Below, piece after piece: positions 1,000-46,493 of a stretch of DNA of 64,000 nucleotides. The number at the start of each line of letters is the position of its first letter. The stretch's first letter is position 1. The notes below the pieces were generated by a model. It was not told the DNA's origin. It made no database searches and saw only the letters and a list, made by a program, of their open reading frames with translations. The stretch is from a virus. A program made the translations under genes and the position numbers. The stretch covers positions 1-64,000 of IMG/VR virus record IMGVR_UViG_3300046787_000675. One strand, given 5' to 3'.

Positions 1000-3900
1000 G
1001 TCCCCGTCAAAGTCAGCCCCTAAAGGCTTAACAAGTGCCGGAGGAATCTGTAGAGAATGACCTTTTGTAATAACTGGCCACATTGCAATCATACTGTATT
1101 TATGCAGGGTAGGTGCGCGATTAACAATAACAGGTCTTGTTTTTATAACATCTCTTAACCCGCTCTGGGCAGCTTCTGTTTTATTAGCGACTGCTTTGGC
1201 TGCTTCTGTAGCAGGCATTCCAGCCTGGACTAAGCTTCTAACTATAAACGGCTCATACAGATCCCATGCTTTCTCCTCCGGTATTCCTACCTGATTAAGT
1301 TTAAGCGACGGGTTAAGAGATATAACAGCAAGACCGGAAGCATCGATATTAGTACCTATTACGCGTTTTTGGACAAAGCCTAATTTAGGAGATCCTTTAC
1401 CGAGAATATTGGTAAGTATACCTCCCACCTGTTTAGTCTGAAGTTCTGCCTGTACGGGGTCAGTTAATCCTACCAGAGCTCTATAATTCTTCTGTATATT
1501 TTCGCGAGCTTCATTCTTTACATCGTCCGGGAGATTAGCTGCGTCCTTATAATCCTCAATAGCCTCCATGGTAGCTTTATACATGTAGTTAGCATCATTT
1601 ACCATATTCATCCCGTTACTTTGTGTAATCGGTCTGTATTTAGGAGGTAATACAGGTATTCTGTCCATAAGGTAATCGCGAGGTGCTACACCTTGATCCT
1701 GCATAGCTTTTAGATAGCGGAACTTTTTAATAGCCAAAGGACGCGATGTTTTATTACCGTTCTTAATTAGTTCGATAGATTTAGTTATTTCATGTTCAAC
1801 ATCGATTTTATTTATCTTATCGTTAATAGCCCCATTACGAACTTCTTCATCAAATTGTTTTCTAGTCATCCCCAGTATATTTCTAATAGGATCTTCCATT
1901 ACAGGATTTACCATTGGCTCTGGCAAAGCAATATATCCCCAGCGTTTACCGTTGCCGAGAGAATCTGTAGCTACGGGGTCGAATAATCCGCCTTCTATAG
2001 GTTTAAAGTTACTCTGTGCAAATGTCGCGTTTTTAACTATCTGTCTATCGCCGGTTAGCTCCTGCGCACCTTTATTAGTTAAAGCTTGAATATTGTCGTT
2101 GTCCTTACCTTCATGAAAGTTTACTCCGGCAGCAGTAAGCATTGCCTTAAACTTATTATACACTTCAGGTGTATCCGGGACTTTAGGGGAATAGCCTAAT
2201 TTTAATTGCTTCCAGAACTCGTCGTTGCGTTGTCCTTTTATCAATTTCATATCTCTTAATACTTTTGTAGCATTGTGACCTAAGAGACCCTGCTCCTCCA
2301 TTACTCCTAAGTGCTTACTATTTGATACTAAGACGTTACCAGCAGTGTACTTATGTGTGTGATCTACAGTGAAGTCATAAACATTAATATATTCTACATC
2401 AGTTCTATGTTTATATTGTTTAATACTCCTAATAGTAGCTGGGACTTTACCAATCCTGCATATGTTATCTACCGGAACAGGTTTAATAGTTTTCTGTATT
2501 TCTTTTATAGTTTTGCGTAACCATATCTTACTACGAGGAACAGCTGTATAAGGGATATATTGTGCTATAAGCTCTACTAATTTAGAACACAGTTTAGCAG
2601 ATATATATAAAGAGTATTGTTCTGGGCGTTTATATATCTTACTTACGCACTTATCTCCGAATCTTCTTTCAAAGAACGCGATTATAAGATCTAATTCAGT
2701 CTCAGAGAACCCATGTGTAGATAATTCTCCTTGCAAGGCTATCTTTCCTTTCTTCTTAGCATGGTTTCCTATATACCCATCATCTAAAATCCAAGCACAT
2801 AGTCCTATATCGCCTATATAGTTAAGCCATTCTTCTGTAACCGTCTTCTTATCCTCTTTATAACACAGCTGTTTAAGTTCTTTTATAACCGCTTTATCGC
2901 ACATAGTCATTAGAGTACGTTTGTGTGATTTACCTTGAGGGTCTATTCCTTCGGATTTTATTTGAGACCATGTTCCATATAACCCCGCTACTACTTTTTG
3001 TTTAAAACTTATATACTCAGATTGCTTTATAGAATGCATTACCTGATATTGCTGCGATGTAAGATATGCGTCTCCAAGTAAAGACCCAGCTAAAAACTTT
3101 TTCTGATAATCTGTGGCAATTGGACCCCAACTGATAAGTTCGTCCCCCACCTTAAGCTCTCCAGCTGTTACTTTTTTACCGTTGTATAGATATACTTCAT
3201 GGTTGATTGTAGGAGTAAGAACAGATGTATGTTTAAATCTTTTACCCCCACACACTGATGCTGTTCCTTCTACTTCTATGTTAAGAATATCTGACACGCG
3301 TGCTCGATAAGTAAACCAATCCGTTATCGGTCTATAACACCAAGACTCAGTTTCCCCATCATATGTCCATACGTGTTCTGACTGCTGTTTCTCGACTATT
3401 CTACCTATCTCCCTCTCTCCATGAAGGGTTAATATTTTCTGTGTTGATGGGAAACATCCGGTCTTCCCTCCTTTCGCCGGTAAACCTTCTTCTGTGTATT
3501 TACCGGTCGAGCGCGCTTTTCCTTTGCCCTCTGCGGTATGTTGTAGTTTATAGAAGAAGCTTTTGCCTGTAAAAATTCCTGGTATTGTTTTACCTGTCCG
3601 CGGATCATATATATCTTCAACATCCTTTAAACCGTTTTTAGTTAATTCTTTCTCGGCAAACTCTACCATATCCTCGTCCAGAAATCCGGGGAGTGTGTAC
3701 GGTTTACCTGTTTTCTCTGCAATTTTTCCTAACTGCGCTTCTACTAATTGCGAGCTGTTTGTACGGGAGATAACTCCGAGAGGAGAAATTATAACGTCAA
3801 TAGGTCTTCCAGAAGAATCCCGCGGCATTTTATCGTCAGGAATAATATCGGAAATAACACCTTTACCTCCGAATCTATTAGACAGTTTATCGGCAATCAT

Positions 3901-6303
3901 CATAGGTACATTTGCCCGCGCTGCTACAGCAAAACCATTTTTAGTTTCAGTTGCATCGGTAACAACACCGGGAAACTTATGTGTCCATGTCTGGGTTATA
4001 TCAGTGCGCAGTCTTCTACCCAGGGTATTGCTTCCCTGTGTTTCATTAAAGGCGACTACCATAGGATCGCCGTAATTAAGTATACTGCCAGGCTTTACTA
4101 CGCCGTTCTCGTCGAGTTTATTTAATTGATCTTTGTTAAATTTAGATGGGAATACAGCCAGGAACTTTTTAAGTCCAGTCTGTGTATCTTCATTCTTCTC
4201 AAACTCCTCGTTATACATATGCTCTGAGGTTAATTTACTTCTAGCTGCGCTCTCCGAAATAAGTATAGAGTCTTCAAATACTTTTCCGTCGTAATTCATA
4301 TAGGCAACACGTAAATTTGTACCGAGAGCAGTTACACCTTTATCGTCTGTATAATTACTGCTTGCAAGTAGCTGTTGTTTACCTACCTTATCTCCTACTT
4401 TTACTGCAGGAATATTACGTATATAAGTCTTACGGGAAAAAGGAAATTTATTGTAGAGTTCGTGTGTTACGGATTTACCGTCGGCATATTTAACTGTTAC
4501 ACTATCGTCATCTAAAGCTGTAACAACGCCGTCGTTATCTGCTCTAAGAGCGCCCATATGTGTCCCTAGTTCCTCTTCCACGGACGACTCTCCGGATACC
4601 GTCCTTACAAGAGGAGCTTCCCGGGAAACTAGAGGGAGAGCCTGCACGGCAAATTTTGAACCCATTAAAAGGCGCATACCTTTAACTCCGCTTTTTAAAG
4701 GTACTGTATTGGCTCCATTAGAAAAGATATCGTCTCCTGTAGGAACTACAAAATCAAGATCTTTACGCGGTATAAGTTGTACGCCTTTCTCGGTTACAGC
4801 AGGGACGAATTCGTTTTTATCGTTAAGGTATTCTGATGTCGCGACGTTTTTATAGGCTGCTGTTTTGGAATCTACCCATTCTCTTTCCCCCGTACGGGCA
4901 TTAATAAATTGCGTATATAACTTATTATCTTTTCCTTTCCGTACATTCCGGGCAAGGCGCATATCGACACCTATTTTTAAGGATTCCGGACTGCGAATAA
5001 CATCAACAAAGTTCAAGTAAGAAGGCTGTACATCCCGCGCAGAAGAAGGTACACTATCGATATCTTCTAAGGCACCTTCGCCGAGACGCGTAATACGTTG
5101 GTTCTGATCGTAGTAATCTAACGGATTTATCTCTTCAATACCTTGGCTAACTCCCGAATTATTAAATAGATATGTGACATGGTCGTCTAAATGTGCCGGG
5201 GGAATAACTTCTGCGTTAGGTCCTTTGGAGCTAAGTCTCCAAAGTAATTTTTTAGAGACATTATGTTGGTCGCGACGAATTTTCTCTGTTAGGAAATCGG
5301 AGAAATCAAATACGCGTTGAAACGCCAGGGAATCCCTATTGTCATTACCTTCCTGTCCGCGAGATATACGTAACAATTTAGATGTTGCATCTGCCAACAA
5401 TTGGGGTTGGACTCTCTCGTAAGGTTTACCTAAAGTGCTTGTTGTTCCCTCTACATCCAAGTCCCCTTTAGAAAACGTGTCAATAAGATTTTGCCTTATG
5501 CGTTCTGTGTCATCTGCAGCTTCTTTATCCAGGGTAGGATCTTCCTGCTCTTTTATAAATTCTTCTTTAGGAGCTCTTCCTCCGGGATGTACAAAAGATT
5601 TAATAAAGCGGGTAGCATGCGATGTATTGCGCATTGTTTCGTTTACAGTATATATTTCTTTACCCCATCTACTCTTTAAATCCTGTGTATCATAGCCCAT
5701 TGCCTCCATAACAGGGAGAAGAGGTACTTTCTTATTAGCATATTTTAAATAAAATACCGCTGTAGATGGATCCATAAAAATACGGAAATTAGATCCTGTA
5801 CCCGGTTTAACATTTATTTGTGCCTCTACTTGCTGGTCATCTGTACGTTGGCTATAAACGCCGGGATTCAAACGGAATTGTTTATTTACAGTATATTCTG
5901 TGCCGTTTCGAATAAATGTACCTCTATCCGTCAGGAAAGGTACGTTCATAACAGTACGGGGGTTAGACTTAGACAAGATATTACCTTGTAGATCGTGTAC
6001 TTCCCATGAACCTTTAAGTTTTCTAACAAGGGATTTTCCTTTAAGAATAGCTTCTCGCTGTTCGCGAAGGTTATACCGTTCTTTAGGTTCATATTGTACG
6101 TCGGACAGTACAAGTTTATATTTATCGTTCGCAATAGGATAGGCATTAGATACAGCATCTTTAATGTTATTGTAGATAACTCCACGGAAGGAATTATAAT
6201 CGCTGTAGTCTATTAATTCATCGGGATTTACTTTTGGTAGTTCAAACAGACTATCTGCACTACCTGTAGCAGTACCTGTAGGTGCCGGGAGTATATTTGA
6301 CAT
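1..6303 (-). CDS. rpoBC: Fused beta-beta' multisubunit-type DNA-directed RNA polymerase (partial, >=2101 aa, 3' end beyond window), containing two inteins
   Basis: Hand translation from ATG at 6303; frame checked at 5160, 3456, 2340 and 1020. Beta motifs: VPFLTDRGTFIRNGTEY, SQGIEEINPL..RITRLGEG, RSPESLKIG, RLLMGSKFAVQALPL, ALGTNLRVAYMNYDGKVFEDSILISE, DKLSNRFGGKGVIS, KLQHTAEGK, KHLGVMEE. Beta' motifs: KPIEGGLFDP, IPVLPPKYRP, NRAPTLHK, GADFDGD (1020-1000). Confidence 0.95.
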   Translation of the reverse strand, partial: MSNILPAPTGTATGSADSLFELPKVNPDELIDYSDYNSFRGVIYNNIKDAVSNAYPIANDKYKLVLSDVQYEPKERYNLREQREAILKGKSLVRKLKGSWEVHDLQGNILSKSNPRTVMNVPFLTDRGTFIRNGTEYTVNKQFRLNPGVYSQRTDDQQVEAQINVKPGTGSNFRIFMDPSTAVFYLKYANKKVPLLPVMEAMGYDTQDLKSRWGKEIYTVNETMRNTSHATRFIKSFVHPGGRAPKEEFIKEQEDPTLDKEAADDTERIRQNLIDTFSKGDLDVEGTTSTLGKPYERVQPQLLADATSKLLRISRGQEGNDNRDSLAFQRVFDFSDFLTEKIRRDQHNVSKKLLWRLSSKGPNAEVIPPAHLDDHVTYLFNNSGVSQGIEEINPLDYYDQNQRITRLGEGALEDIDSVPSSARDVQPSYLNFVDVIRSPESLKIGVDMRLARNVRKGKDNKLYTQFINARTGEREWVDSKTAAYKNVATSEYLNDKNEFVPAVTEKGVQLIPRKDLDFVVPTGDDIFSNGANTVPLKSGVKGMRLLMGSKFAVQALPLVSREAPLVRTVSGESSVEEELGTHMGALRADNDGVVTALDDDSVTVKYADGKSVTHELYNKFPFSRKTYIRNIPAVKVGDKVGKQQLLASSNYTDDKGVTALGTNLRVAYMNYDGKVFEDSILISESAARSKLTSEHMYNEEFEKNEDTQTGLKKFLAVFPSKFNKDQLNKLDENGVVKPGSILNYGDPMVVAFNETQGSNTLGRRLRTDITQTWTHKFPGVVTDATETKNGFAVAARANVPMMIADKLSNRFGGKGVISDIIPDDKMPRDSSGRPIDVIISPLGVISRTNSSQLVEAQLGKIAEKTGKPYTLPGFLDEDMVEFAEKELTKNGLKDVEDIYDPRTGKTIPGIFTGKSFFYKLQHTAEGKGKARSTGKYTEEGLPAKGGKTGCFPSTQKILTLHGEREIGRIVEKQQSEHVWTYDGETESWCYRPITDWFTYRARVSDILNIEVEGTASVCGGKRFKHTSVLTPTINHEVYLYNGKKVTAGELKVGDELISWGPIATDYQKKFLAGSLLGDAYLTSQQYQVMHSIKQSEYISFKQKVVAGLYGTWSQIKSEGIDPQGKSHKRTLMTMCDKAVIKELKQLCYKEDKKTVTEEWLNYIGDIGLCAWILDDGYIGNHAKKKGKIALQGELSTHGFSETELDLIIAFFERRFGDKCVSKIYKRPEQYSLYISAKLCSKLVELIAQYIPYTAVPRSKIWLRKTIKEIQKTIKPVPVDNICRIGKVPATIRSIKQYKHRTDVEYINVYDFTVDHTHKYTAGNVLVSNSKHLGVMEEQGLLGHNATKVLRDMKLIKGQRNDEFWKQLKLGYSPKVPDTPEVYNKFKAMLTAAGVNFHEGKDNDNIQALTNKGAQELTGDRQIVKNATFAQSNFKPIEGGLFDPVATDSLGNGKRWGYIALPEPMVNPVMEDPIRNILGMTRKQFDEEVRNGAINDKINKIDVEHEITKSIELIKNGNKTSRPLAIKKFRYLKAMQDQGVAPRDYLMDRIPVLPPKYRPITQSNGMNMVNDANYMYKATMEAIEDYKDAANLPDDVKNEARENIQKNYRALVGLTDPVQAELQTKQVGGILTNILGKGSPKLGFVQKRVIGTNIDASGLAVISLNPSLKLNQVGIPEEKAWDLYEPFIVRSLVQAGMPATEAAKAVANKTEAAQSGLRDVIKTRPVIVNRAPTLHKYSMIAMWPVITKGHSLQIPPALVKPLGADFDGDKQIGNVIVNLPCKYLEEYYSVSDIYNKEYWRTRLMAARFTTHLPYVKGSNYYCINLEDFPYRKDRLLGSKDGVDFYEAEKFLKVPAYCEKTKKIVLADVHGWSIHRDKEIWLVNLHNRNQIITDDDERAVYGCLPGTLELVRRTPKDSVGMLVPSGRHLENIALDYEASITTIPGEGSSLLDQIPLNKSFGHLIGFLIGDGWVSFCNGKVKGQLCFSTSYGNVEQSIQEDLNKIRKDGKAAHLHRKKTADSYGDSYTYVYSNTDTSRLLFKLMGKGADKKHLPSFWLCSPREFKIGLLSGLFDSDGSISISNGKSKPQLMASFSSISLRLVQE
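2320..3456 (-). mobile_element. Intein 1 (379 aa, LAGLIDADG homing endonuclease) in the beta C-terminal region
   Basis: Starts CFPSTQKILT after ..KGGKTG. Block B TPTINHEV; LAGLIDADG motifs LAGSLLGDAY and AWILDDGY; ends VYDFTVDHTHKYTAGNVLVSN followed by +1 Ser. Removal restores GGKTG-SKHLGVME (cf. GGQRFGEME). Confidence 0.92.
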
Positions 6304-31326: not shown

Positions 31327-31371
31327 TTTCTACTCTACTTCATCGATAGCTAAAAAAAAGAGCGGAAGACT

Positions 31372-31405
31372 TTCTCCGGTACACTTTTTAGGGTGTACCG
31401 GAGAA
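31372..31405. terminator. Perfect 13-bp hairpin ending the ribozyme-containing cassette (probable terminator)
   Basis: TTCTCCGGTACAC / GTGTACCGGAGAA; U-run about 12 nt further downstream on minus strand. Confidence 0.55.
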
Positions 31406-31414
31406 CAATATATC

Positions 31415-31642
31415 TTAAAGAGCTTGCGGTTTTAACGCCTCAATCACAAGGTTATTAAGATATATCGGGGGGACGGTTAGCGATATTAACCCATTGAGCT
31501 CGGGGGCAATCAATCCTTTATCGTCTATCCTATAAAGTATATTTCCTGTTTTCAGGAAATCACTTTTTATAAATATTTTACCGTCTTTTCTGTGCAATGA
31601 AAAGGGTTCAGTACCCTTTTTTGTTTCTAGTAAGATAAGCAT
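31415..31642 (-). CDS. Hypothetical protein
   Basis: 75 aa with repeated leader and AAGGAG RBS. Confidence 0.65.
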   Translation of the reverse strand: MLILLETKKGTEPFSLHRKDGKIFIKSDFLKTGNILYRIDDKGLIAPELNGLISLTVPPIYLNNLVIEALKPQAL

Positions 31643-31683
31643 AATTTGTTCTCCTTTTAAAAGACGGGCTTATGTCTGCCCTT

Positions 31684-31760
31684 ACTGAATTAAAACTTCT
31701 ATTTAACAACTGCATTAAATAGAAGGGGCTGTTGGTTCAGTGTCTACCAACAGCCCTATT
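31684..31760 (-). ncRNA. Structured RNA motif C, copy 1 (two hairpins + pseudoknot), unassigned
   Basis: GGGCUGUUGG/CCAACAGCCC and CUUCUAUUUAA/UUAAAUAGAAG stems; loop ACUGAA complementary to downstream UUCAGU; covaries with 35398-35476. Confidence 0.75.
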
Positions 31761-31900
31761 TAGTAGCTTTTTTAACATAGGGAGCTACACTAACCCTATC
31801 CCGTATAAAGTAGTCTATGTAACGCCAAGACTCCTGCGCCTGACTTTATAAAGGTCAGGTACTTGCTGTAGCCTTTTAGTGTCTTGCTTAGGACAAGTTT

Positions 31901-32719
31901 TTAGTTAGAGGCGAGCCATTCTTTTATGGCTTTCGAAAGCTCTTCAGGACTGGGTATTGCACCCGTCGGGGCGAACGGGCTTCCACCTATGGTATCGGCG
32001 CCTCCCCAATTTCCTATTTGAAACTGCTCACTCAAGAACGGCCAAAGGGATTTAAGAGAAGGGACTTTACTAAAGGGCAACTTACCTATGGTGATCTTAT
32101 CACCTAACAAAAAGCCGAACCCAGCAGACTTGTAAATGTCTGCGAAATTGTTCTCCCCATCACGAGAGAATACAATTTCTCCTTTCGGGGAGAGGCCAAT
32201 TGCTGTTCCTTTGAACTTGTGGAGTTTGTCTCTCCGATAGAGAGTACCCTCGGTATATTCCTTACCGACTCTCTCCACTAGGGAGAGTAAAATCTCGGTC
32301 GATGGAACGACCCCGCGTTCGGGGCGAGCCCATCCAAAGATGGAAAGACCCTCTACGTTATCGGCTGCTGACGCGCCGTTCGCGTCTATCTGACTAACTT
32401 CGCGAACGAAGTTAGCAAATTGCGGGTCGTCCGCCGCAGCGGGGTTTAAAACCAGCCACGTACTCAATATAGAGTCCGCATCGATCGAGCTAACCCGCAT
32501 TTCCTCAATGTCCGGGAGGAATTGTCTCAGCCCAAGCCTCAGGGCATTCAACACCTGCAAGCAGGTTGCCGACAGAGGGAATCGTTCCCCTTCGCCATGA
32601 TGGTCGAAGGAGAAACTATTTGTCTCTGGTTTCGCGGCATAGCCTCGGTAGGCACCATCAATGTATATGGTGTTGTTTTCCATTTCATTTACGGGATCAG
32701 TTAGTAGTTGGATATTCAT
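31901..32719 (-). CDS. DHH-phosphoesterase-fold-like protein
   Basis: IYIDG, SFDHH, IDADSILS, WGGADTIGGSP. Confidence 0.55.
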   Translation of the reverse strand: MNIQLLTDPVNEMENNTIYIDGAYRGYAAKPETNSFSFDHHGEGERFPLSATCLQVLNALRLGLRQFLPDIEEMRVSSIDADSILSTWLVLNPAAADDPQFANFVREVSQIDANGASAADNVEGLSIFGWARPERGVVPSTEILLSLVERVGKEYTEGTLYRRDKLHKFKGTAIGLSPKGEIVFSRDGENNFADIYKSAGFGFLLGDKITIGKLPFSKVPSLKSLWPFLSEQFQIGNWGGADTIGGSPFAPTGAIPSPEELSKAIKEWLASN

Positions 32720-32798
32720 AATTTTCTCCTTATAAGACGGGCTATGACTGCCCTTATTTTTTCAAAACAACCCGCCTTGCATACACAAGCCAGAGTTT

Positions 32799-32861
32799 AT
32801 TACCCCCTGTAGTACAGGGACGCACTAAGCTTAAAATCTATTTATAGTCGCTTAGTCGACT
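32799..32861 (-). ncRNA. Pistol ribozyme, copy 1 (predicted cut between 32803/32802)
   Basis: AGUCG-ACUAAG-CGACU-AUAAAUAG-AUU-UUAAG-CUUAGU-GCG-UCCCUGU-ACU-ACAGGGG-G^U-AAU: P1, pseudoknot, P2, P3 and conserved AAAUAG/UAAG/GCG/GU of pistol. Confidence 0.9.
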
Positions 32862-33307
32862 TCCTCCTCATCCTCATCCAGAGCAGGGGCATTCTCCCAC
32901 CACTCGTAGATCAACGATCTTAAATCCGACAGTCTGTCGGACTGTTCTCGTTGGAGATGAAGACGAGGATCTTCCTCGTCTAGGATCGGGAGACCTACAC
33001 GACTTTTTAAATCGTCAGGTAATTCTTCAAATCCTAGGTAGTTGCAATAGCTTACAGTCAGGACATCCTTTACATCCTGCTCTGTTACTTCCCCAACTAC
33101 GGGGAAGGTTTTAAATATATCTTTCGGGATGTCGAGGAATACCCCCGAAAGAGTTAAGTTGTTACTTACAGCCACTTCTTGGGAGGAACATGGCGGTCTT
33201 GTAGTTATTACAGGAGCGACGAGATAGGTCTCGTCGTTATCCCGTACAGCGCAAAGGAGGGCTTCGCGCCATTTAACTACCTTCAATCGAGGAGTTCCCA
33301 TAACCAT
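32852..33307 (-). CDS. Hypothetical protein; stop codon lies inside pistol copy 1
   Basis: 151 aa; ends GUC GAC UAA within P1/loop. Confidence 0.7.
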   Translation of the reverse strand: MVMGTPRLKVVKWREALLCAVRDNDETYLVAPVITTRPPCSSQEVAVSNNLTLSGVFLDIPKDIFKTFPVVGEVTEQDVKDVLTVSYCNYLGFEELPDDLKSRVGLPILDEEDPRLHLQREQSDRLSDLRSLIYEWWENAPALDEDEEEVD

Positions 33308-33696
33308 TCCTCGTTGAATTCCTCAAAATCCTCTCTGAAGAATCTATTCGGAGTGGGCCCACCCCCTATGATTAGCCCTGAGGCGAGCATAAATATGCTA
33401 CCAAGTCCTTTCCCTAGAGAGCGGGAGGAGCCTCCCTCCTTCCAGAATTTCTCTGGAATATAGAGGGCTTCTTCATCGCCCTCTATATTCTCTCCTGGTA
33501 GACATGTGTAATGCTCCAGCTCATTTTGAGCATCCTCCTCTTCCCCTACGGCAGTAGGGTCATAGGTATACCCCTTTTTACGGGGTGTTTTCAATTTTAA
33601 CCCCGCAGGGGTTATAATTATAGATCCACCCTCTGGGGTGGGCAGTACGGAACCGCCCGCGGCGTAAAACTTATAATTTAGGTTTCTTTTATTCAT
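33283..33696 (-). CDS. Hypothetical protein
   Basis: 137 aa, repeated leader and AAGGAG RBS. Confidence 0.65.
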   Translation of the reverse strand: MNKRNLNYKFYAAGGSVLPTPEGGSIIITPAGLKLKTPRKKGYTYDPTAVGEEEDAQNELEHYTCLPGENIEGDEEALYIPEKFWKEGGSSRSLGKGLGSIFMLASGLIIGGGPTPNRFFREDFEEFNEEWLWELLD

Positions 33697-33773
33697 AATT
33701 TTTCTCCTTATAAGACGGGCTTATGAAACCCTTATTTTAAAACAACTCGCCTTACCTACGTAAGCCCAAGTTT

Positions 33774-33836
33774 ATTACCCCCTACAGCGTAGGGACGCAC
33801 TAGGCTTAAAATCTCTTTATAGTCGCCTAGTCGACT
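33774..33836 (-). ncRNA. Pistol ribozyme, copy 2 (predicted cut between 33778/33777)
   Basis: AGUCG-ACUAGG-CGACU-AUAAAGAG-AUU-UUAAG-CCUAGU-GCG-UCCCUAC-GCU-GUAGGGG-G^U-AAU; compensatory changes versus copy 1 in pseudoknot and P3. Confidence 0.9.
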
Positions 33837-33871
33837 GCTACGTTTTACGCCCAGCTCGGCGCGGACGGTTT

Positions 33872-34150
33872 TTACATCAAGTCTTCCTTAGATGCGATTC
33901 CGTCTGCTATTTTAATAGCAGTGTGTCGGAACCATCCGAGAAGACTGTCCACGTCTTGGCTATTTTGCCAGTGGTATTCCTGGCAGGTTAGCCCTCTGGC
34001 GGGACAGCCCTTAATGTAGAACCTATACCCTTTGTACAGGATATAGATTCCATCCGCCTCTACTCTAAGATCGTAGTCCTTTTCAGGTAATACATTAGAG
34101 TAGAAGGCGATTTCTTGGATTAGATCCAAGGTATCTTTGTTATTTAACAT
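33872..34150 (-). CDS. Hypothetical protein
   Basis: 92 aa, AAGGAG RBS. Confidence 0.65.
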   Translation of the reverse strand: MLNNKDTLDLIQEIAFYSNVLPEKDYDLRVEADGIYILYKGYRFYIKGCPARGLTCQEYHWQNSQDVDSLLGWFRHTAIKIADGIASKEDLM

Positions 34151-34184
34151 GGATACTCCTTGTAGGCTGGTCAGGCCTGTTAAA

Positions 34185-34649
34185 TTATTTTTTTAAGAGC
34201 ATAACGCGACCTACGTTAAACACTTTGACATGGTAATTTAGAGCCCTCGTTTCAGCCTCATCGGCTTCTGCTAAGTACTCCGGTGTGACCCATACTCCTT
34301 TGTTCAAAACCCTTTCAAGTTTTTGCACATAAGGTGCGGAGTCATGTCCATGTCCACCGAAAAATATTACAGCCTCGGTGTGGCTGTTGGCTTGTTGCCA
34401 TGCCGCACATCCGCTGTGGCTACGCCGTTTAACTTGAACCGGGTAAACGATACCGGTGCTCTTGTTTGCAAGAGCTACGTCCACTCCCTGATGATCCAGG
34501 TCATGAGTGATGAACGCCTCCCAGCCTCTAATCTGGTCGATTACCCTTACGAGGATTTCCTCGTTTAGATAACCAACCTCTTGAGCACGGCTGGCGTTCA
34601 CTGGGATACGTGCTTTTTTATCCCAATCATACGACTTAAAAACTTTCAT
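34185..34649 (-). CDS. Putative PD-(D/E)XK nuclease-fold protein
   Basis: LDHQGVDVAL...YPVQVKRR. Confidence 0.6.
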   Translation of the reverse strand: MKVFKSYDWDKKARIPVNASRAQEVGYLNEEILVRVIDQIRGWEAFITHDLDHQGVDVALANKSTGIVYPVQVKRRSHSGCAAWQQANSHTEAVIFFGGHGHDSAPYVQKLERVLNKGVWVTPEYLAEADEAETRALNYHVKVFNVGRVMLLKK

Positions 34650-34666
34650 AAAAAAATCCTTATAAT

Positions 34667-34729
34667 ATTACCCCCTACAGCGTAGGGACGCACTAAGCTT
34701 AAAATCTATTTATAGTCGCCTAGTCGACT
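34667..34729 (-). ncRNA. Pistol ribozyme, copy 3 (predicted cut between 34671/34670)
   Basis: Same layout; ACUAGG/CUUAGU pseudoknot has a G-U pair that works only on the minus strand. Confidence 0.9.
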
Positions 34730-34737
34730 GTTAAGAA

Positions 34738-35070
34738 CTACCAGGGGTAGCGGTAGTTCTTTGTTCCGGACCATTTAAACCTAGGGTTCCTAGGCACCCC
34801 CCGTAGGTCCATATACGGGAGGTGAAAAGATATTTGATGCCCTTTCCAACATACGTATAGTATGTCAGAAAAGGCATCTCCACCAATTACTACCTTAGGT
34901 AGATCGGGGAGATTTTTATCTCTTTTTATTTTCCATTCTTTTATGAACAGATCAAGGTATTTCTCCTTGTGTTCATAAAAGAATGTAGAGTCTTCCTTGG
35001 CTCGTATATTGGCCAAGAAAGCTCTTTTTAGTAAATAATTCAGGAATTTATCCATCCATAGATACTCCAT
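34738..35070 (-). CDS. Hypothetical protein
   Basis: 110 aa; QISFHLP...KWSG motif. Confidence 0.65.
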   Translation of the reverse strand: MEYLWMDKFLNYLLKRAFLANIRAKEDSTFFYEHKEKYLDLFIKEWKIKRDKNLPDLPKVVIGGDAFSDILYVCWKGHQISFHLPYMDLRGVPRNPRFKWSGTKNYRYPW

Positions 35071-35397
35071 TAAGGTTGTTACATAGTAGAGATAGCATCC
35101 GCGCTATTTCTACCGACATGTACTCACCTTGTTAAGTACACAGCTAAGGTTTTTTATGGGTCATATAGAGGATACCTGTAAAACCCCTACTAGAAAGTCT
35201 TTCGCGCCTTCTTTCGCGCCCCCTTGGGGGAACTGTGGTACACATGAGCCTGTACCAAGCCCCGGGGAAACTAGTGATCCTTCACTAGAGACTGATGTCC
35301 CGGAATTTTTCATTTGTATCCCGCCCCGCTTTGCGGTCGGCGGATAATTACTGTTTCATAATTTCGCTCCTTATTAAAGACGGGCTTATGAAACCCT

Positions 35398-35476
35398 ACT
35401 GAATTTATATACTTCTACTCACCCACTGTAGTAAATAGAAGGGGCTACAAGTTCAGTTACTACTTGTAGCCCTATT
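35398..35476 (-). ncRNA. Structured RNA motif C, copy 2
   Basis: GGGCUACAAG/CUUGUAGCCC (compensated stem), CUUCUAUUUAC/GUGAGUAGAAG, loop ACUGAA + downstream UUCAGU. Confidence 0.75.
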
Positions 35477-35547
35477 CAAAGATAACTATGCGCTATCTCA
35501 TTATATTATGACCGTTTTTACCTAAAAATTAAGGCTATATAATCCTG

Positions 35548-35814: not shown

Positions 35815-36274
35815 CGTCTACCTCTACGGCATTATACAATAGAGAAACTGTATTTTCAAACGCTGTTCGAAGAAGCGTGTCGCTTATTACGAAAGGATAT
35901 ACCACTCCTGTACGTGCTTTGCCAGCCATAACACCGTCCACAATAAAATCCAGTATATCAATAAGATGTATATCTTCCGGTATACCATCCTCTGCTGTTA
36001 AATGGTGCCTGTTTACTTTCCTATGGTTATCCCACCAGGTAGTGTTCTTAAAGCCCCCGACGAAATCTCTATGGAAACCGTCGATGTCCGAGAACTTGTC
36101 ATGATCATGGTGTTTAACCTGTTCATCAATCAGCTCTTTAAAGAAGTCAAACCCTTTACGGATATCCCCTACATGCTGCTCAGAGCTTTTTAACAGTTGT
36201 TCTTTCGTTACCTTTGTGTAATCGCAGCTTCGTGTGTCAGCTGTCTCGCTTTTGCGAATTGTTATTTTTTTCAT
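35804..36274 (-). CDS. HD-like (DUF5662-like) protein
   Basis: HVG..HDHDKFS..HRKVNRHH..LIDILDFIVD. Confidence 0.6.
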   Translation of the reverse strand: MKKITIRKSETADTRSCDYTKVTKEQLLKSSEQHVGDIRKGFDFFKELIDEQVKHHDHDKFSDIDGFHRDFVGGFKNTTWWDNHRKVNRHHLTAEDGIPEDIHLIDILDFIVDGVMAGKARTGVVYPFVISDTLLRTAFENTVSLLYNAVEVDDEK

Positions 36275-44900: not shown

Positions 44901-46493
44901 TTAATTGTTATTAACAATGCATGCTCGCATTTCTGCGAACAAGGGCTGATCTGCCAACGCACGTAGGAAAATCCCACGCGCTCCATTTATATCTCGGCAC
45001 ATACTCTGTCCGAGACTCTTGATGGTCTTACGACCACCTAGATTTTGGATAACTTCTCCTGTCCAACTAGCGGTTTTACTTGTGTATGCTTCGCATTGTC
45101 TTATTATTATTTTTCCTGCCTCGTTAGCTTTACTTAAAAGCTTTTGAGAGAACTTGTAGTGGGATAAGGTAAGCATTTGACGTACTGACTTTTTGCGTAG
45201 CTTACGAGCAGCTTTACAAACCATATTACTTACTTCGAAAGGAGGTAGGATTATAACATCAAAGTTATTAACAAGCATAGCTACAGCTTTGTTGTGTAGT
45301 TCGGCTATTAAGTCTTTGATTTTCCAACGCATCCTATCTGCAGCTTTCTTAAGCCTATATCGTTGCTTAGCTGTACATTTAGTTTGTCGACTTATCAAGT
45401 CGTCTAAATAAATACACAATCTTGTTATTCTGCTCATAGCGCCTGAACCTATTTTAAAAACACCTGCAGGAGAGTAGCCTGTTAAGAATGTTCGTACACC
45501 TGGATCAAGAGCTACAATCCTACCTTGGTTTTCGGCAGGTACTGTAGTTACTTGTTCCGGTATACAGACAAACCATCTACCTTGTTGGTAAATAAGTCTG
45601 CTGTCCATAGGGGAATTTGGAATAGCTTCAGAATAGCGCAATACGCCTGACAATCTTTGATAAATACCTTTATCGCTTATCGCGCTCTTAGGGATGTAAC
45701 AAGAGTGTACAGGCTCTTTCTTACTTTTAAATTTAGGTACTTGGGGTACCCCTGTCTGCTTAGTAGTCATACGGCATTTAACAAGGCAAGAGTGCGCTTC
45801 TTTTACAGCTATAGACTTTATTTGATATGGTATTTCTTTCGACCATACAGGAGCGTCTTTGAAAAGAATATTTCTAAGATCCATCCAAGACACTCTTTCT
45901 GCAGGGTTTTTGTTTAACCAATCTAAAGCTAAGTTGTAGAAGAAACGGAAAGAACCTAGCCATTTCTTAAAGGCTATTTTCGTCTCTTTCAACGGATAGA
46001 TTCGTATCTTTCTCGATTTTGTTAGCGTACTTCCCAAATCGTGCGAAGCTGCTGGAGAAGTATTGTGATAATTCATTAACGTTTGTTGTGAGTTCTTCTT
46101 TGGAGCTAAAGCGGTGGTCATTGAGAACCACGATTTCTCCGCCGTTCTTCCTAACCATGGACTCAATGAGGTCAAATCCAAGTCTAACAAGTCGGTCTTT
46201 ACTGGTAACCACAAGCGTGAGCTTATCTCCCTGCATAAGTCGTTCCAGTAAGGCTTGAAGTCCTTTTCTTTTGAAGTTAAGAGCACTTCCGGTGTCTTCG
46301 ATGACTTCAGCGTTTGGGTACAGCTGTCTAAGTTGCGCGGTTTGTCGGACGAGGTCGTCCTTTTGTTCCGGCGAGTGGACTCTGCAGTAAAGGACGATAG
46401 AACTGTCTGCTTGTCCTCGAATGTACGATTTGACATCGTACAATCGCTGACCTGCTTCATTTTTGACTGTTCTAATCTTTCCTTCATCTGCAT
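44901..46493 (-). CDS. tnpB: TnpB, catalytically rearranged (Fanzor2-like/pro-Fanzor type); true start uncertain
   Basis: KIRIYP, ALDPGVRTF, VIILPPF (no canonical Glu), QCEAYTSKT, RDINGARGI. Confidence 0.88.
   Translation of the reverse strand: MQMKERLEQSKMKQVSDCTMSNRTFEDKQTVLSSFTAESTRRNKRTTSSDKPRNLDSCTQTLKSSKTPEVLLTSKEKDFKPYWNDLCREISSRLWLPVKTDLLDLDLTSLSPWLGRTAEKSWFSMTTALAPKKNSQQTLMNYHNTSPAASHDLGSTLTKSRKIRIYPLKETKIAFKKWLGSFRFFYNLALDWLNKNPAERVSWMDLRNILFKDAPVWSKEIPYQIKSIAVKEAHSCLVKCRMTTKQTGVPQVPKFKSKKEPVHSCYIPKSAISDKGIYQRLSGVLRYSEAIPNSPMDSRLIYQQGRWFVCIPEQVTTVPAENQGRIVALDPGVRTFLTGYSPAGVFKIGSGAMSRITRLCIYLDDLISRQTKCTAKQRYRLKKAADRMRWKIKDLIAELHNKAVAMLVNNFDVIILPPFEVSNMVCKAARKLRKKSVRQMLTLSHYKFSQKLLSKANEAGKIIIRQCEAYTSKTASWTGEVIQNLGGRKTIKSLGQSMCRDINGARGIFLRALADQPLFAEMRACIVNNN

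Follow-up and report, generated by a model that had tools for sequence, protein, structure and literature searches.

An unassigned two-hairpin RNA shares the intercistronic gaps of a phage operon with pistol ribozymes

Ribozyme-punctuated operons and the present locus

Phage and prophage operons punctuated by ribozymes, be they clustered hammerheads (PMC3088659) or the mixed array of the phage locus L069, contain small accessory genes, each headed by a structured RNA together with a recurring translation leader, and the RNA classes are exchangeable between the slots. In L069, one shared leader recurs behind eight pistols and two hammerhead-like elements, and nearly every slot is filled, which supports a precedent for the exchange of RNA classes ahead of the leader. 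The pistol ribozyme itself consists of stems P1 to P3 and a pseudoknot that connects the P1 loop to the P2-P3 junction (PMC4604425), and known ribozyme classes were first discovered through such neighbourhoods (PMC4604425, PMC10085705). Another point of comparison is the put RNAs of phage HK022, which are ~70-80 nt long, form two stem-loops and come in two related copies, with irregular stems, non-canonical pairs and a triplex (PMC9378689).

The element described here, motif C, lies in a window of 64,000 nucleotides (positions 1 to 64,000 of the IMG/VR virus record IMGVR_UViG_3300046787_000675) and occurs twice in the whole 160,705-bp genome. It fills the first and last intercistronic gaps of an operon whose inner gaps are filled by pistols, with all genes on the minus strand. 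Copy B (35396..35478, minus strand) stands in the first gap, 3' of an 88-aa gene, and copy A (31682..31762, minus strand) in the last, flanked by a 272-aa and a 75-aa gene; the two score 106.8 and 104.5 bits, respectively, to model R1. The pistols of units 2, 3 and 4 (34666..34729, 33773..33836 and 32798..32861, all minus strand) reach 67.5, 64.5 and 69.3 bits against a gathering threshold of 34.5. A hairpin and the shared leader follow in unit 3 (33772-33694) and unit 4 (32797-32717), while the pistol of unit 2 has no leader hairpin behind it. Behind copy A, the shared leader (31640..31681, minus strand) comprises a short G+C hairpin (31681-31666), a U-rich run, a Shine-Dalgarno sequence (31656-31651) and an ATG (31642-31640). 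Behind copy B (35352..35396, minus strand), the hairpin (35396-35382), U-rich run and Shine-Dalgarno sequence lead into a mini-ORF of three codons (35363-35352). The best match to a sigma-70-like promoter ahead of the operon (35831..35859, minus strand; 11 of 12 positions, a consensus match only) and a terminator-like operon end (31353..31405, minus strand), where a 13-bp hairpin is followed by a short G+C hairpin with an eight-U run (31378-31353), place both copies inside one predicted transcription unit.

The initial annotation had assigned motif C to the slot upstream of the shared leader hairpin that a pistol plus a hairpin takes up in sibling units. Operon, strand, gaps and leader are indeed those of the pistols, but the equivalence is narrower than proposed. 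An alignment (A3) sets hairpin 2 (H2) and the U/A-rich linker of motif C opposite the hairpin that trails the pistols of units 3 and 4, with weak sequence resemblance. H2, linker, leader hairpin and ribosome-binding site thus hold the position of the module that trails two of the three pistols, and because of this alignment only hairpin 1 (H1) with its 5' AAUA, not the whole of motif C, occupies the pistol's place.

Fold and conservation of the two copies

The analysis confirms motif C as a tightly folded RNA of the gene strand. Both structured copies noted initially were recovered, with edges extended by 2 nt per side (31762-31682 and 35478-35396 as read on the minus strand), and their minimum free energy structures are two abutting hairpins at -31.2 kcal/mol (z -7.1) in copy A and -32.3 kcal/mol (z -5.3) in copy B against dinucleotide shuffles. 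The sequence outside is not significantly structured (z -0.14 and -1.26), so motif C is a discrete block. Its stems are perfect, 11 bp in H1 and 12 bp in H2, without internal loop, bulge or junction nucleotides. In copy A, H1 (31726..31756, minus strand; -19.0 kcal/mol alone) pairs 31756-31746 with 31736-31726 around a 9-nt loop (31745-31737) with ACUGAA at 31741-31736, and H2 (31696..31725, minus strand; -10.2 kcal/mol alone) pairs 31725-31714 with 31707-31696 around a 6-nt loop (31713-31708) with CAGU. The corresponding stems of copy B are 35472-35462 with 35452-35442 in H1 (35442..35472, minus strand; loop 35461-35453, ACUGAA 35457-35452; -17.0 kcal/mol alone) and 35441-35430 with 35423-35412 in H2 (35412..35441, minus strand; loop 35429-35424 with CAGU; -12.6 kcal/mol). 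As H2 of copy B contains three G-U pairs, the fold is specific to the gene strand: copy B folds at -32.3 kcal/mol on the minus strand versus -23.1 on the plus strand, where H2 collapses.

The copies, 81-83 nt long, share 61 of 83 columns in a pairwise alignment and differ at the other 22 (26%). The conserved blocks reported initially are identical in both, namely the 5' AAUAGGGCU, loop 1 with ACUGAA, a 15-nt H1/H2 junction, the loop-2 CAGU and the tail AAUUCAGUA; blocks of 15, 9, 9 and 7 nt are untouched and ~25 unpaired nucleotides are the same. All 28 proposed pairs (11 in H1, 12 in H2 and five between loop and tail) form in both copies in the two-copy alignment (A2), and pairing falls to 33-56% when partners are slid by 1-3 columns; the shuffle control of this alignment has a floor of 1/32 with two sequences (16/500 shuffles). 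Four pairs of H1 are changed on both sides, which bears out the stem swap with retained pairing seen initially, as is one pair of H2, and two further H2 pairs pass from U-A to U-G. When 1.03 Mb of phage DNA was scanned with a descriptor, no other site combined abutting stems this long with a loop-tail complement, and the four other sites that passed have stems of just 8-10 bp.

Loop 1 has a complement of 5-6 bp in the 3' tail and one of 4 bp in the CAGU of loop 2, as had been pointed out. The tail UUCAGU (31684..31689 in copy A, with a duplex energy of -4.7 kcal/mol, and 35398..35403 in copy B, both minus strand) is a candidate pseudoknot strand, and the hexamer occurs 12 times on the gene strand of the genome versus ~39 expected, two of the 12 being the motif C tails. 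The initial description of a covarying pseudoknot holds for the H1 and H2 stems, which covary, but not for the pseudoknot: loop 1, loop 2 and tail segments never vary between the two copies, so both contacts count only as complementarity, that is, as candidate pairings. The tail can alternatively pair with the 5' flank and close a three-way junction. With flanks included, the minimum free energy structure of both copies closes this weak outer stem round the two hairpins, although the gain is just 0.1 to 1.5 kcal/mol and the stem of copy A is interrupted by a mismatch.

Family assignment and distribution

An Rfam scan found the three pistols only and matched motif C to no family, in line with the initial failure to place it among hammerhead, twister, twister-sister, hatchet or HDV ribozymes. 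The pistol model (RF02679) gave no match to motif C up to E 10, even on a 151-base search, leaving it below the gathering threshold where the true pistols here score 64-69 bits. Motif C resembles a pistol in being small and in having a 5' hairpin loop complementary to a downstream single strand. Unlike a pistol, it has just two hairpins, no P2/P3 arrangement and none of the conserved pistol nucleotides, and loop 1 finds its complement beyond H2, in the 3' tail, rather than at a P2-P3 junction. The hammerhead core boxes (CUGAnGA, GAAA and the cleavage triplet) are absent and no Rfam match appeared up to E 10, whereas the hammerhead-like elements of L069, which carry these boxes, are detected at E 0.08-0.2. 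Twister, twister-sister, hatchet, hairpin and HDV-like ribozymes were not among the 19 weakest-allowed matches on 151 bases. The HDV-like order P1-P2-P3-P1-P4-P2 also appears incompatible with our reading of the fold, in which the tail-pairing loop strand lies directly against the 3' arm of H1 and leaves no room for P3; here the exclusion is weaker than for the remaining classes, because structure-defined variants can escape Rfam models. A match to the DUF2815 RNA (RF03084; 19.3 bits versus a gathering threshold of 41.2) falls on the leader and ribosome-binding site (31682-31640), not on motif C.

No relatives emerged from seven pattern searches across viral, metagenomic and genomic collections, nor from blastn or protein-cluster look-ups. 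The covariance-model search proposed with the initial annotation, run on 75 phage loci that carry pistols, was equally unproductive. Judging from public data, motif C is confined to one phage lineage, which puts comparative proof out of reach.

Possible roles between the genes

We tentatively favour, at somewhat less than an even chance, a cis-acting structured RNA of the intercistronic leaders that serves as a non-catalytic message boundary ("insulator") or shielding module. H1, with its G+C-rich base, A-rich 5' flank and U-rich 3' flank, might form or protect the 3' end of the upstream message, either by terminating leakily or by halting 3' exonucleases. H2, possibly clamped by pairing between loop 1 and tail, might shield the 5' terminus of the message downstream and give the shared translation leader constant surroundings. 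While pistol units cut themselves, motif C units would depend on a host endonuclease acting at the conserved AU-rich single strand of the 5' edge, or on partial termination. Stem-loops near the 5' end protect bacterial mRNAs from RNase E and RNase J, and hairpin processing sites lie between the early genes of phage T7. Long perfect stems without internal loop characterise protective hairpins and terminators rather than catalytic cores. The strand-specific structure, the compensatory changes, the discreteness of the block, the single predicted transcription unit, the equivalence of H2 and linker with the post-pistol module and the high rank of both H1 copies among terminator-like sites (see below) also argue for a boundary module. 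Of the two functions offered initially, 5' protection fits this anatomy at least as well as self-cleavage. The role is read from anatomy, with the RNase site, the transcript ends and termination at motif C all putative. Against it, the identity of loop 1, the loop-2 CAGU and the tail amid varying neighbours is left unexplained, an efficient terminator at H1 would cut off expression of the genes beyond it, which have no strong predicted promoter inside the operon, and by analogy with comparable arrays, where such a slot nearly always holds a true ribozyme, a catalytic occupant might be expected.

A new small self-cleaving ribozyme class replacing the pistol in two slots is, in our view, unlikely, though the principal competitor. 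Its core would consist of H1, the loop-tail pseudoknot, the unpaired 5' AAUA, the UAG of loop 1 and the CAGU of loop 2, with a cut at the 5' edge or in the linker. The same modest likelihood applies to the broader proposition that an unseen self-cleaving class, or a processing signal equivalent to a ribozyme and recognised by a dedicated nuclease, substitutes for the pistol in ribozyme-punctuated phage operons. Operon, slot and leader shared with Rfam-confirmed pistols, the exchange of pistol and hammerhead-like elements in L069, the unpaired nucleotides kept identical despite 26% divergence and the unusual hexamer pair with its under-represented UUCAGU all speak in favour. However, motif C has no internal loops, bulges or multi-helix junction, its candidate pseudoknot shows no covariation, and only H1 is slot-specific, a plain 11-bp hairpin being an unusual stand-in for a catalytic core. 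Nor was a relative found in any searched collection, whereas known classes have hundreds of members (PMC4604425). In the ribozyme-punctuated arrays compared here the slot elements are recognisable ribozymes, whereas two slots here hold an element without a catalytic signature.

It is rather improbable that motif C is an RNA switch or operator controlling leader translation or read-through, in which loop 1 engages either the tail (pseudoknot) or loop 2 (kissing), or the tail engages the 5' flank, with a protein, small molecule or temperature making the choice. Three mutually exclusive complementarities in both copies, the outer stem that appears once flanks are added, helices of near-equal length (11 and 12 bp) as a loop-loop contact would need, and the location directly upstream of the terminator-like leader hairpin and ribosome-binding site would suit such a device. 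Yet that outer stem is weak, the junction has almost no unpaired bases for a pocket, the hairpins (-31 kcal/mol jointly) are too stable for remodelling, and no RNA-binding protein is recognisable among the operon products.

Motif C resembles HK022 put in size, in its two neighbouring stem-loops, in having two related yet non-identical copies per genome and in a presumed cis action on the transcript (PMC9378689), and terminator-like hairpins do follow motif C. A put-like RNA that binds elongating RNA polymerase and promotes read-through of these hairpins is nevertheless very unlikely. There is no sequence or model similarity, the best hit of model R1 in the whole HK022 genome with filters off (11.9 bits, E ~1) being outside the put sites, and perfect stems face irregular ones with bulges, non-canonical pairs and a triplex (PMC9378689). 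Moreover, both copies lie in one operon of a different phage group rather than directly behind early promoters, copy A being ~4 kb from the promoter-like site, and pistol units have the same leader without motif C.

H1 shares with intrinsic terminators and protective mRNA hairpins a long perfect stem based on G+C, U-rich sequence on its 3' side and a location between genes of a phage polycistronic message. Six of the next 9 nt are U, the A-rich 5' flank is complementary to the U-rich 3' flank, and the two copies rank 2nd and 4th of 16 minus-strand sites genome-wide under a relaxed hairpin and U-rich-tail rule, although the 9-nt loop exceeds the limit of a stricter terminator scan. That H1 is merely a duplicated intrinsic terminator, the remainder being conserved through recent duplication, is highly doubtful all the same. 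Blocks of 7 to 15 nt are untouched while 22 of 83 columns differ, H2 keeps its pairing through three changed pairs, one of them altered on both sides, the loop and tail sequences are conserved, and one arm of the abutting H2 is built from the U-rich tract. Both copies also fall within the predicted transcription unit, whose terminator-like U-run hairpin is at 31378-31353, and no promoter is predicted for the downstream genes themselves. Finally, direct DNA repeats that mark the edges of an acquired island for recombination deserve hardly any credence: the copies are in direct orientation and enclose a stretch of 45-54% G+C versus 33-42% around it, but the fold is valid on one strand only, compensatory changes are purposeless in a recombination scar, the repeat runs on into the leader and ribosome-binding site common to units inside the island, and no integrase or transposase adjoins motif C.

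To our knowledge, natural self-cleaving ribozymes fall into only about ten classes, three of which came to light in phage DNA next to ribozymes already recognised. An RNA fold that is clearly under selection, matches no family and stands in the slot of a ribozyme therefore makes an inexpensive, sharply delimited candidate for the bench. Should motif C turn out not to cleave, it would follow that non-catalytic elements too can occupy slots of ribozyme arrays, which would bear on whether operon ribozymes serve to make ends, to insulate translation leaders or to stabilise messages.

Fold and conservation of the two copies

Motif C, a two-hairpin RNA on the gene strand, is present in two copies in the whole genome, copy A at 31762-31682 and copy B at 35478-35396 (both minus strand). 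They bracket the pistol cassette as described in the initial annotation, with three pistols between them. In the minimum-energy and centroid structures of both copies, two hairpins stand directly next to each other without a linker; hairpin 1 has 11 bp and a 9-nt loop, hairpin 2 has 12 bp and a 6-nt loop. Fold energies of -31.2 kcal/mol (copy A) and -32.3 kcal/mol (copy B) lie 7.1 and 5.3 standard deviations, respectively, below those of dinucleotide shuffles. There was no significant structure just upstream of either copy, and when 1.03 Mb of phage DNA was scanned with a descriptor, no other equally long abutting stems with a loop-tail complement came up.

The copies differ in 22 of 83 aligned columns, and these differences are distributed very unevenly. 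Blocks of 15, 9, 9, and 7 nt are unchanged, while eight differences fall within hairpin 1, where they make up four doubly compensated pairs of its inner stem, bearing out the earlier observation of a swapped inner stem with pairing kept. In hairpin 2, two differences make up one compensated pair and two further ones turn U-A into U-G. All proposed pairs form in both copies (28/28), and pairing falls to 33-56% when the 3' partners are slid by one to three columns; a shuffle control has a floor of 1/32 with two sequences. This pairwise placement of changes is unlike the outcome of independent drift. Moreover, three of the pairs in hairpin 2 of copy B are G-U, and the fold of this copy is 9 kcal/mol worse on the plus strand, so the selected structure is that of the gene-strand RNA and not a DNA palindrome.

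ACUGAA in loop 1 is complementary to two segments, the tail UUCAGU located 3' of hairpin 2 (duplex of -4.7 kcal/mol) and, more weakly, the CAGU of loop 2 (-1.8 kcal/mol). The alternative pairing of loop 1 with loop 2 or the tail, as initially proposed, is thus upheld as complementarity, but the segments are identical in both copies, so that both contacts are candidate pairings only. UUCAGU is underrepresented on the minus strand (12 copies vs. about 39 expected). ACUGAA recurs in the loop of a 9-bp hairpin at 31621-31599 (minus) inside the 75-aa gene, which has 8 nt in common with copy A and whose plus strand resembles a perfect terminator; there is no counterpart downstream of copy B. Overall, motif C is a genuine, selected RNA fold standing in a ribozyme's place, its structure being well supported and its pseudoknot and function putative.

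Operon organization and the phage genome

Every gene around motif C is encoded on the minus strand. The best promoter-like site is located at 35859-35831 and a U-run terminator-like site preceded by a 13-bp hairpin at 31378-31353 (both minus). The operon starts with an 88-aa gene, copy B, a mini-ORF of three codons behind the copy B leader (35363-35352, minus), approximately 290 nt of hairpins, and a 110-aa gene, continues with a pistol, two genes, a pistol, two genes, and a third pistol, and ends with the 272-aa gene, copy A, and the 75-aa gene. The first and last intercistronic gaps (units) therefore hold motif C and the three inner ones a pistol, at 34729-34666 (unit 2), 33836-33773 (unit 3), and 32861-32798 (unit 4), all minus and all identified with Rfam at 64-69 bits (threshold 34.5). 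The hairpin-dense stretch in front of the 110-aa gene (within 35071-35363, minus) is rich in G+C hairpins (-111 kcal/mol, z -3.3), has no Rfam match at E up to 10, and may represent either a structured RNA in its own right or an extended, regulated leader. G+C content reaches 45-54% across the three pistol units (~31.8 to 34.8 kb) vs. 33-42% on either side, which suggests that the pistol cassettes were acquired, and that the backbone and the motif C units have a different origin.

All but one of the five units have a common leader, in which a short G+C hairpin is followed by GUCUU, a U/A-rich run, and a Shine-Dalgarno sequence (31681-31640, 32760-32717, 33737-33694, and 35396-35361, all minus). 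Its hairpin stem varies among units with pairing kept, and a terminator scan calls one of the copies terminator-like. The leader scores weakly, and below threshold, with the DUF2815 RNA model (RF03084; 19.3 vs. 41.2 bits), in a match that does not cover motif C. When the four units are aligned, hairpin 2 and its U/A-rich linker fall opposite a hairpin and linker that come after the pistol in units 3 and 4 and resemble them somewhat in sequence. The part peculiar to motif C units is therefore hairpin 1, together with the AAUA 5' of it and its loop, both conserved. The earlier placement of motif C in the pistol's slot ahead of the leader accordingly holds for operon and leader, but it is hairpin 1 only that distinguishes these units.

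That such a slot can change its RNA class is exemplified by another viral contig (L069, IMGVR_UViG_3300042922_000923) with eight pistols, each followed by the same AU-rich leader. Two elements with hammerhead core boxes (2916-3010 and 5014-5112 of that contig) are located among these pistols. They precede the same leader, indicating that RNA classes do exchange within one slot, and with 21-25 bits (E 0.08-0.2) they are below the Rfam gathering thresholds and would be missed by ordinary annotation. A further viral contig carries an array of four pistols, and clusters of ribozymes around small phage genes were already described in 2011 (PMC3088659).

The genome record comprises 160,705 bp at 38.7% G+C, the window being its first 64 kb. 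Its ends (1-166 and 160540-160705) overlap by 166 bp at 99.4% identity, so the record may be a complete genome, circularly permuted or terminally repeated, although it is classed as linear and 84% complete. The sole additional contig carrying the region, a 10,227-bp Logan contig from an independent sequencing run, corresponds to window positions 44916-34690 at 100% identity, i.e. the phage recurs unchanged in independent data. This contig terminates inside the unit-2 pistol, where the repeated ribozyme probably broke the assembly. The 272-aa protein (31901-32719, minus) has DHH, DxD, and glycine-rich motifs that are invariant in seven homologues and no Pfam match. Its structure model (pLDDT 85) has DHH-family enzymes as top structural matches (PAP phosphatase, RecJ, pGpG phosphodiesterase PggH) with Z scores of just 5-6, and it is probably a divergent DHH/DHHA1-type phosphoesterase. 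One homologue adjoins an mCpol gene, a neighbourhood that hints at a role in signalling-nucleotide degradation. The phage also carries a TnpB-like gene at 44901-46493 (minus), whose 530-aa product combines a Cas12f1-like TNB domain with an IS605 OrfB helix-turn-helix domain.

Known families and public distribution

Rfam searches at gathering thresholds across the window and the rest of the genome recovered the three pistols and nothing else, and relaxing the cutoff to E 10 on stretches of 5.2 kb, 151 bases, and 171 bases brought up no relevant match, leaving motif C without a family. Model searches place it outside the pistol, hammerhead, twister, twister-sister, hatchet, hairpin, and HDV-like families, and its topology misfits them as well, in agreement with the initial failure to match hammerhead, twister, twister-sister, hatchet, or HDV. 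Likeness to pistol is limited to a hairpin loop able to pair downstream. A decayed pistol upstream of copy A, with a P1-like stem and two common hexamers by eye, was rejected (local alignment z about 1, no model match).

Seven exact-pattern scans, each aimed at different parts of motif C, covered viral contigs, metagenome contigs, and prokaryotic species genomes. Viral contigs had no match to hairpin 1 plus junction, hairpin 1 with a free inner stem, the leader hairpin, loop 1 plus tail with free stems, or hairpin 2. The junction pattern matched 12 times in metagenome contigs, all by chance, with the 5' arm in none and the covariance model of motif C negative on them, and the hairpin 1 pattern gave six chance matches with non-complementary inner stems in 185,579 species genomes (one per prokaryote species). 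Blastn against 50,697 records of cultured phages returned only chance matches of 19-45 nt. The covariance model, a check proposed at the outset, detected no credible relative in 75 pistol-bearing viral loci, the whole genome, and other loci (top foreign score 18 bits, E 0.25). As the large collections were covered by pattern and identity searches and the model was run on selected loci only, the absence of relatives holds for close ones, and diverged ones may exist.

The neighbouring genes are similarly isolated. Close relatives of the 272-aa and 268-aa proteins were not found in viral contigs, distant homologues of the former have unrelated contexts lacking motif C wherever these were obtainable as DNA, and the 75-aa and 110-aa genes are orphans. 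All eight operon-neighbourhood proteins found in a 15-billion-sequence collection are single-member clusters, and the operon proteins match no Pfam or PHROG family. Judged by the 900-aa protein of this phage, five large pistol-bearing phage records are not related to it. As far as public data show, the distribution of motif C is restricted to one phage.

Candidate functions

We tentatively favour motif C as a non-catalytic module at a message boundary, a reading that we hold at somewhat less than even confidence. The base of hairpin 1 is G+C-rich, its A-rich 5' flank is complementary to its U-rich 3' flank, and six of the next 9 nt are U. Intrinsic terminators and protectors of 3' ends have this anatomy, and the copies of hairpin 1 rank second and fourth of only 16 hairpin-plus-U-rich sites on the minus strand of the whole genome. 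Hairpin 2 occupies the position of the hairpin that, once a pistol had cut, would lie only a few bases from the 5' end so created. This hairpin anatomy, the very stable strand-specific double hairpin, its intercistronic place, and the modular way in which it relates to the pistol units favour the boundary module. Hairpin 1 would end and protect the upstream message, while hairpin 2 would protect the downstream message and hold the shared leader in a constant context, perhaps clamped by loop-tail pairing. Partial termination might separate the messages, or a host endonuclease might cut at the 5' edge, which is AU-rich and conserved.

What a boundary module leaves unexplained is why loop 1, loop 2, and the tail are so strictly conserved. 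Mainly for this reason we still reckon with a new self-cleaving ribozyme, although we deem it unlikely. A switch built on three mutually exclusive pairings is decidedly improbable: an outer stem closing a three-way junction is present in both minimum-energy folds but contributes almost no energy. Slightly less probable again is a polymerase modifier like put, the RNA of phage HK022, with which motif C shares solely size, two-hairpin plan, and two copies (architecture and copy number from PMC9378689); no similarity to HK022 was found, and put stems are irregular whereas those of motif C lack such irregularities. We give very little credence to a merely duplicated terminator, to which the anatomy of hairpin 1 would be pertinent, and least of all to a DNA-level repeat, which is contradicted by the G-U pairs.

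Several other readings were rejected. A 35-codon ORF begins in loop 2 of copy A and is without counterpart in copy B, ARAGORN was negative for tRNA-like elements in the window, and the core sites of an integron attC site are absent. A diversity-generating retroelement repeat pair would show adenine-specific differences and a reverse transcriptase nearby, neither of which is seen here, and the copies are not tandem as in a ToxI-type antitoxin. We rate motif C as falling within a known kind, the structured intercistronic RNAs of ribozyme-rich phage operons, and consider it well suited to a straightforward cleavage assay.
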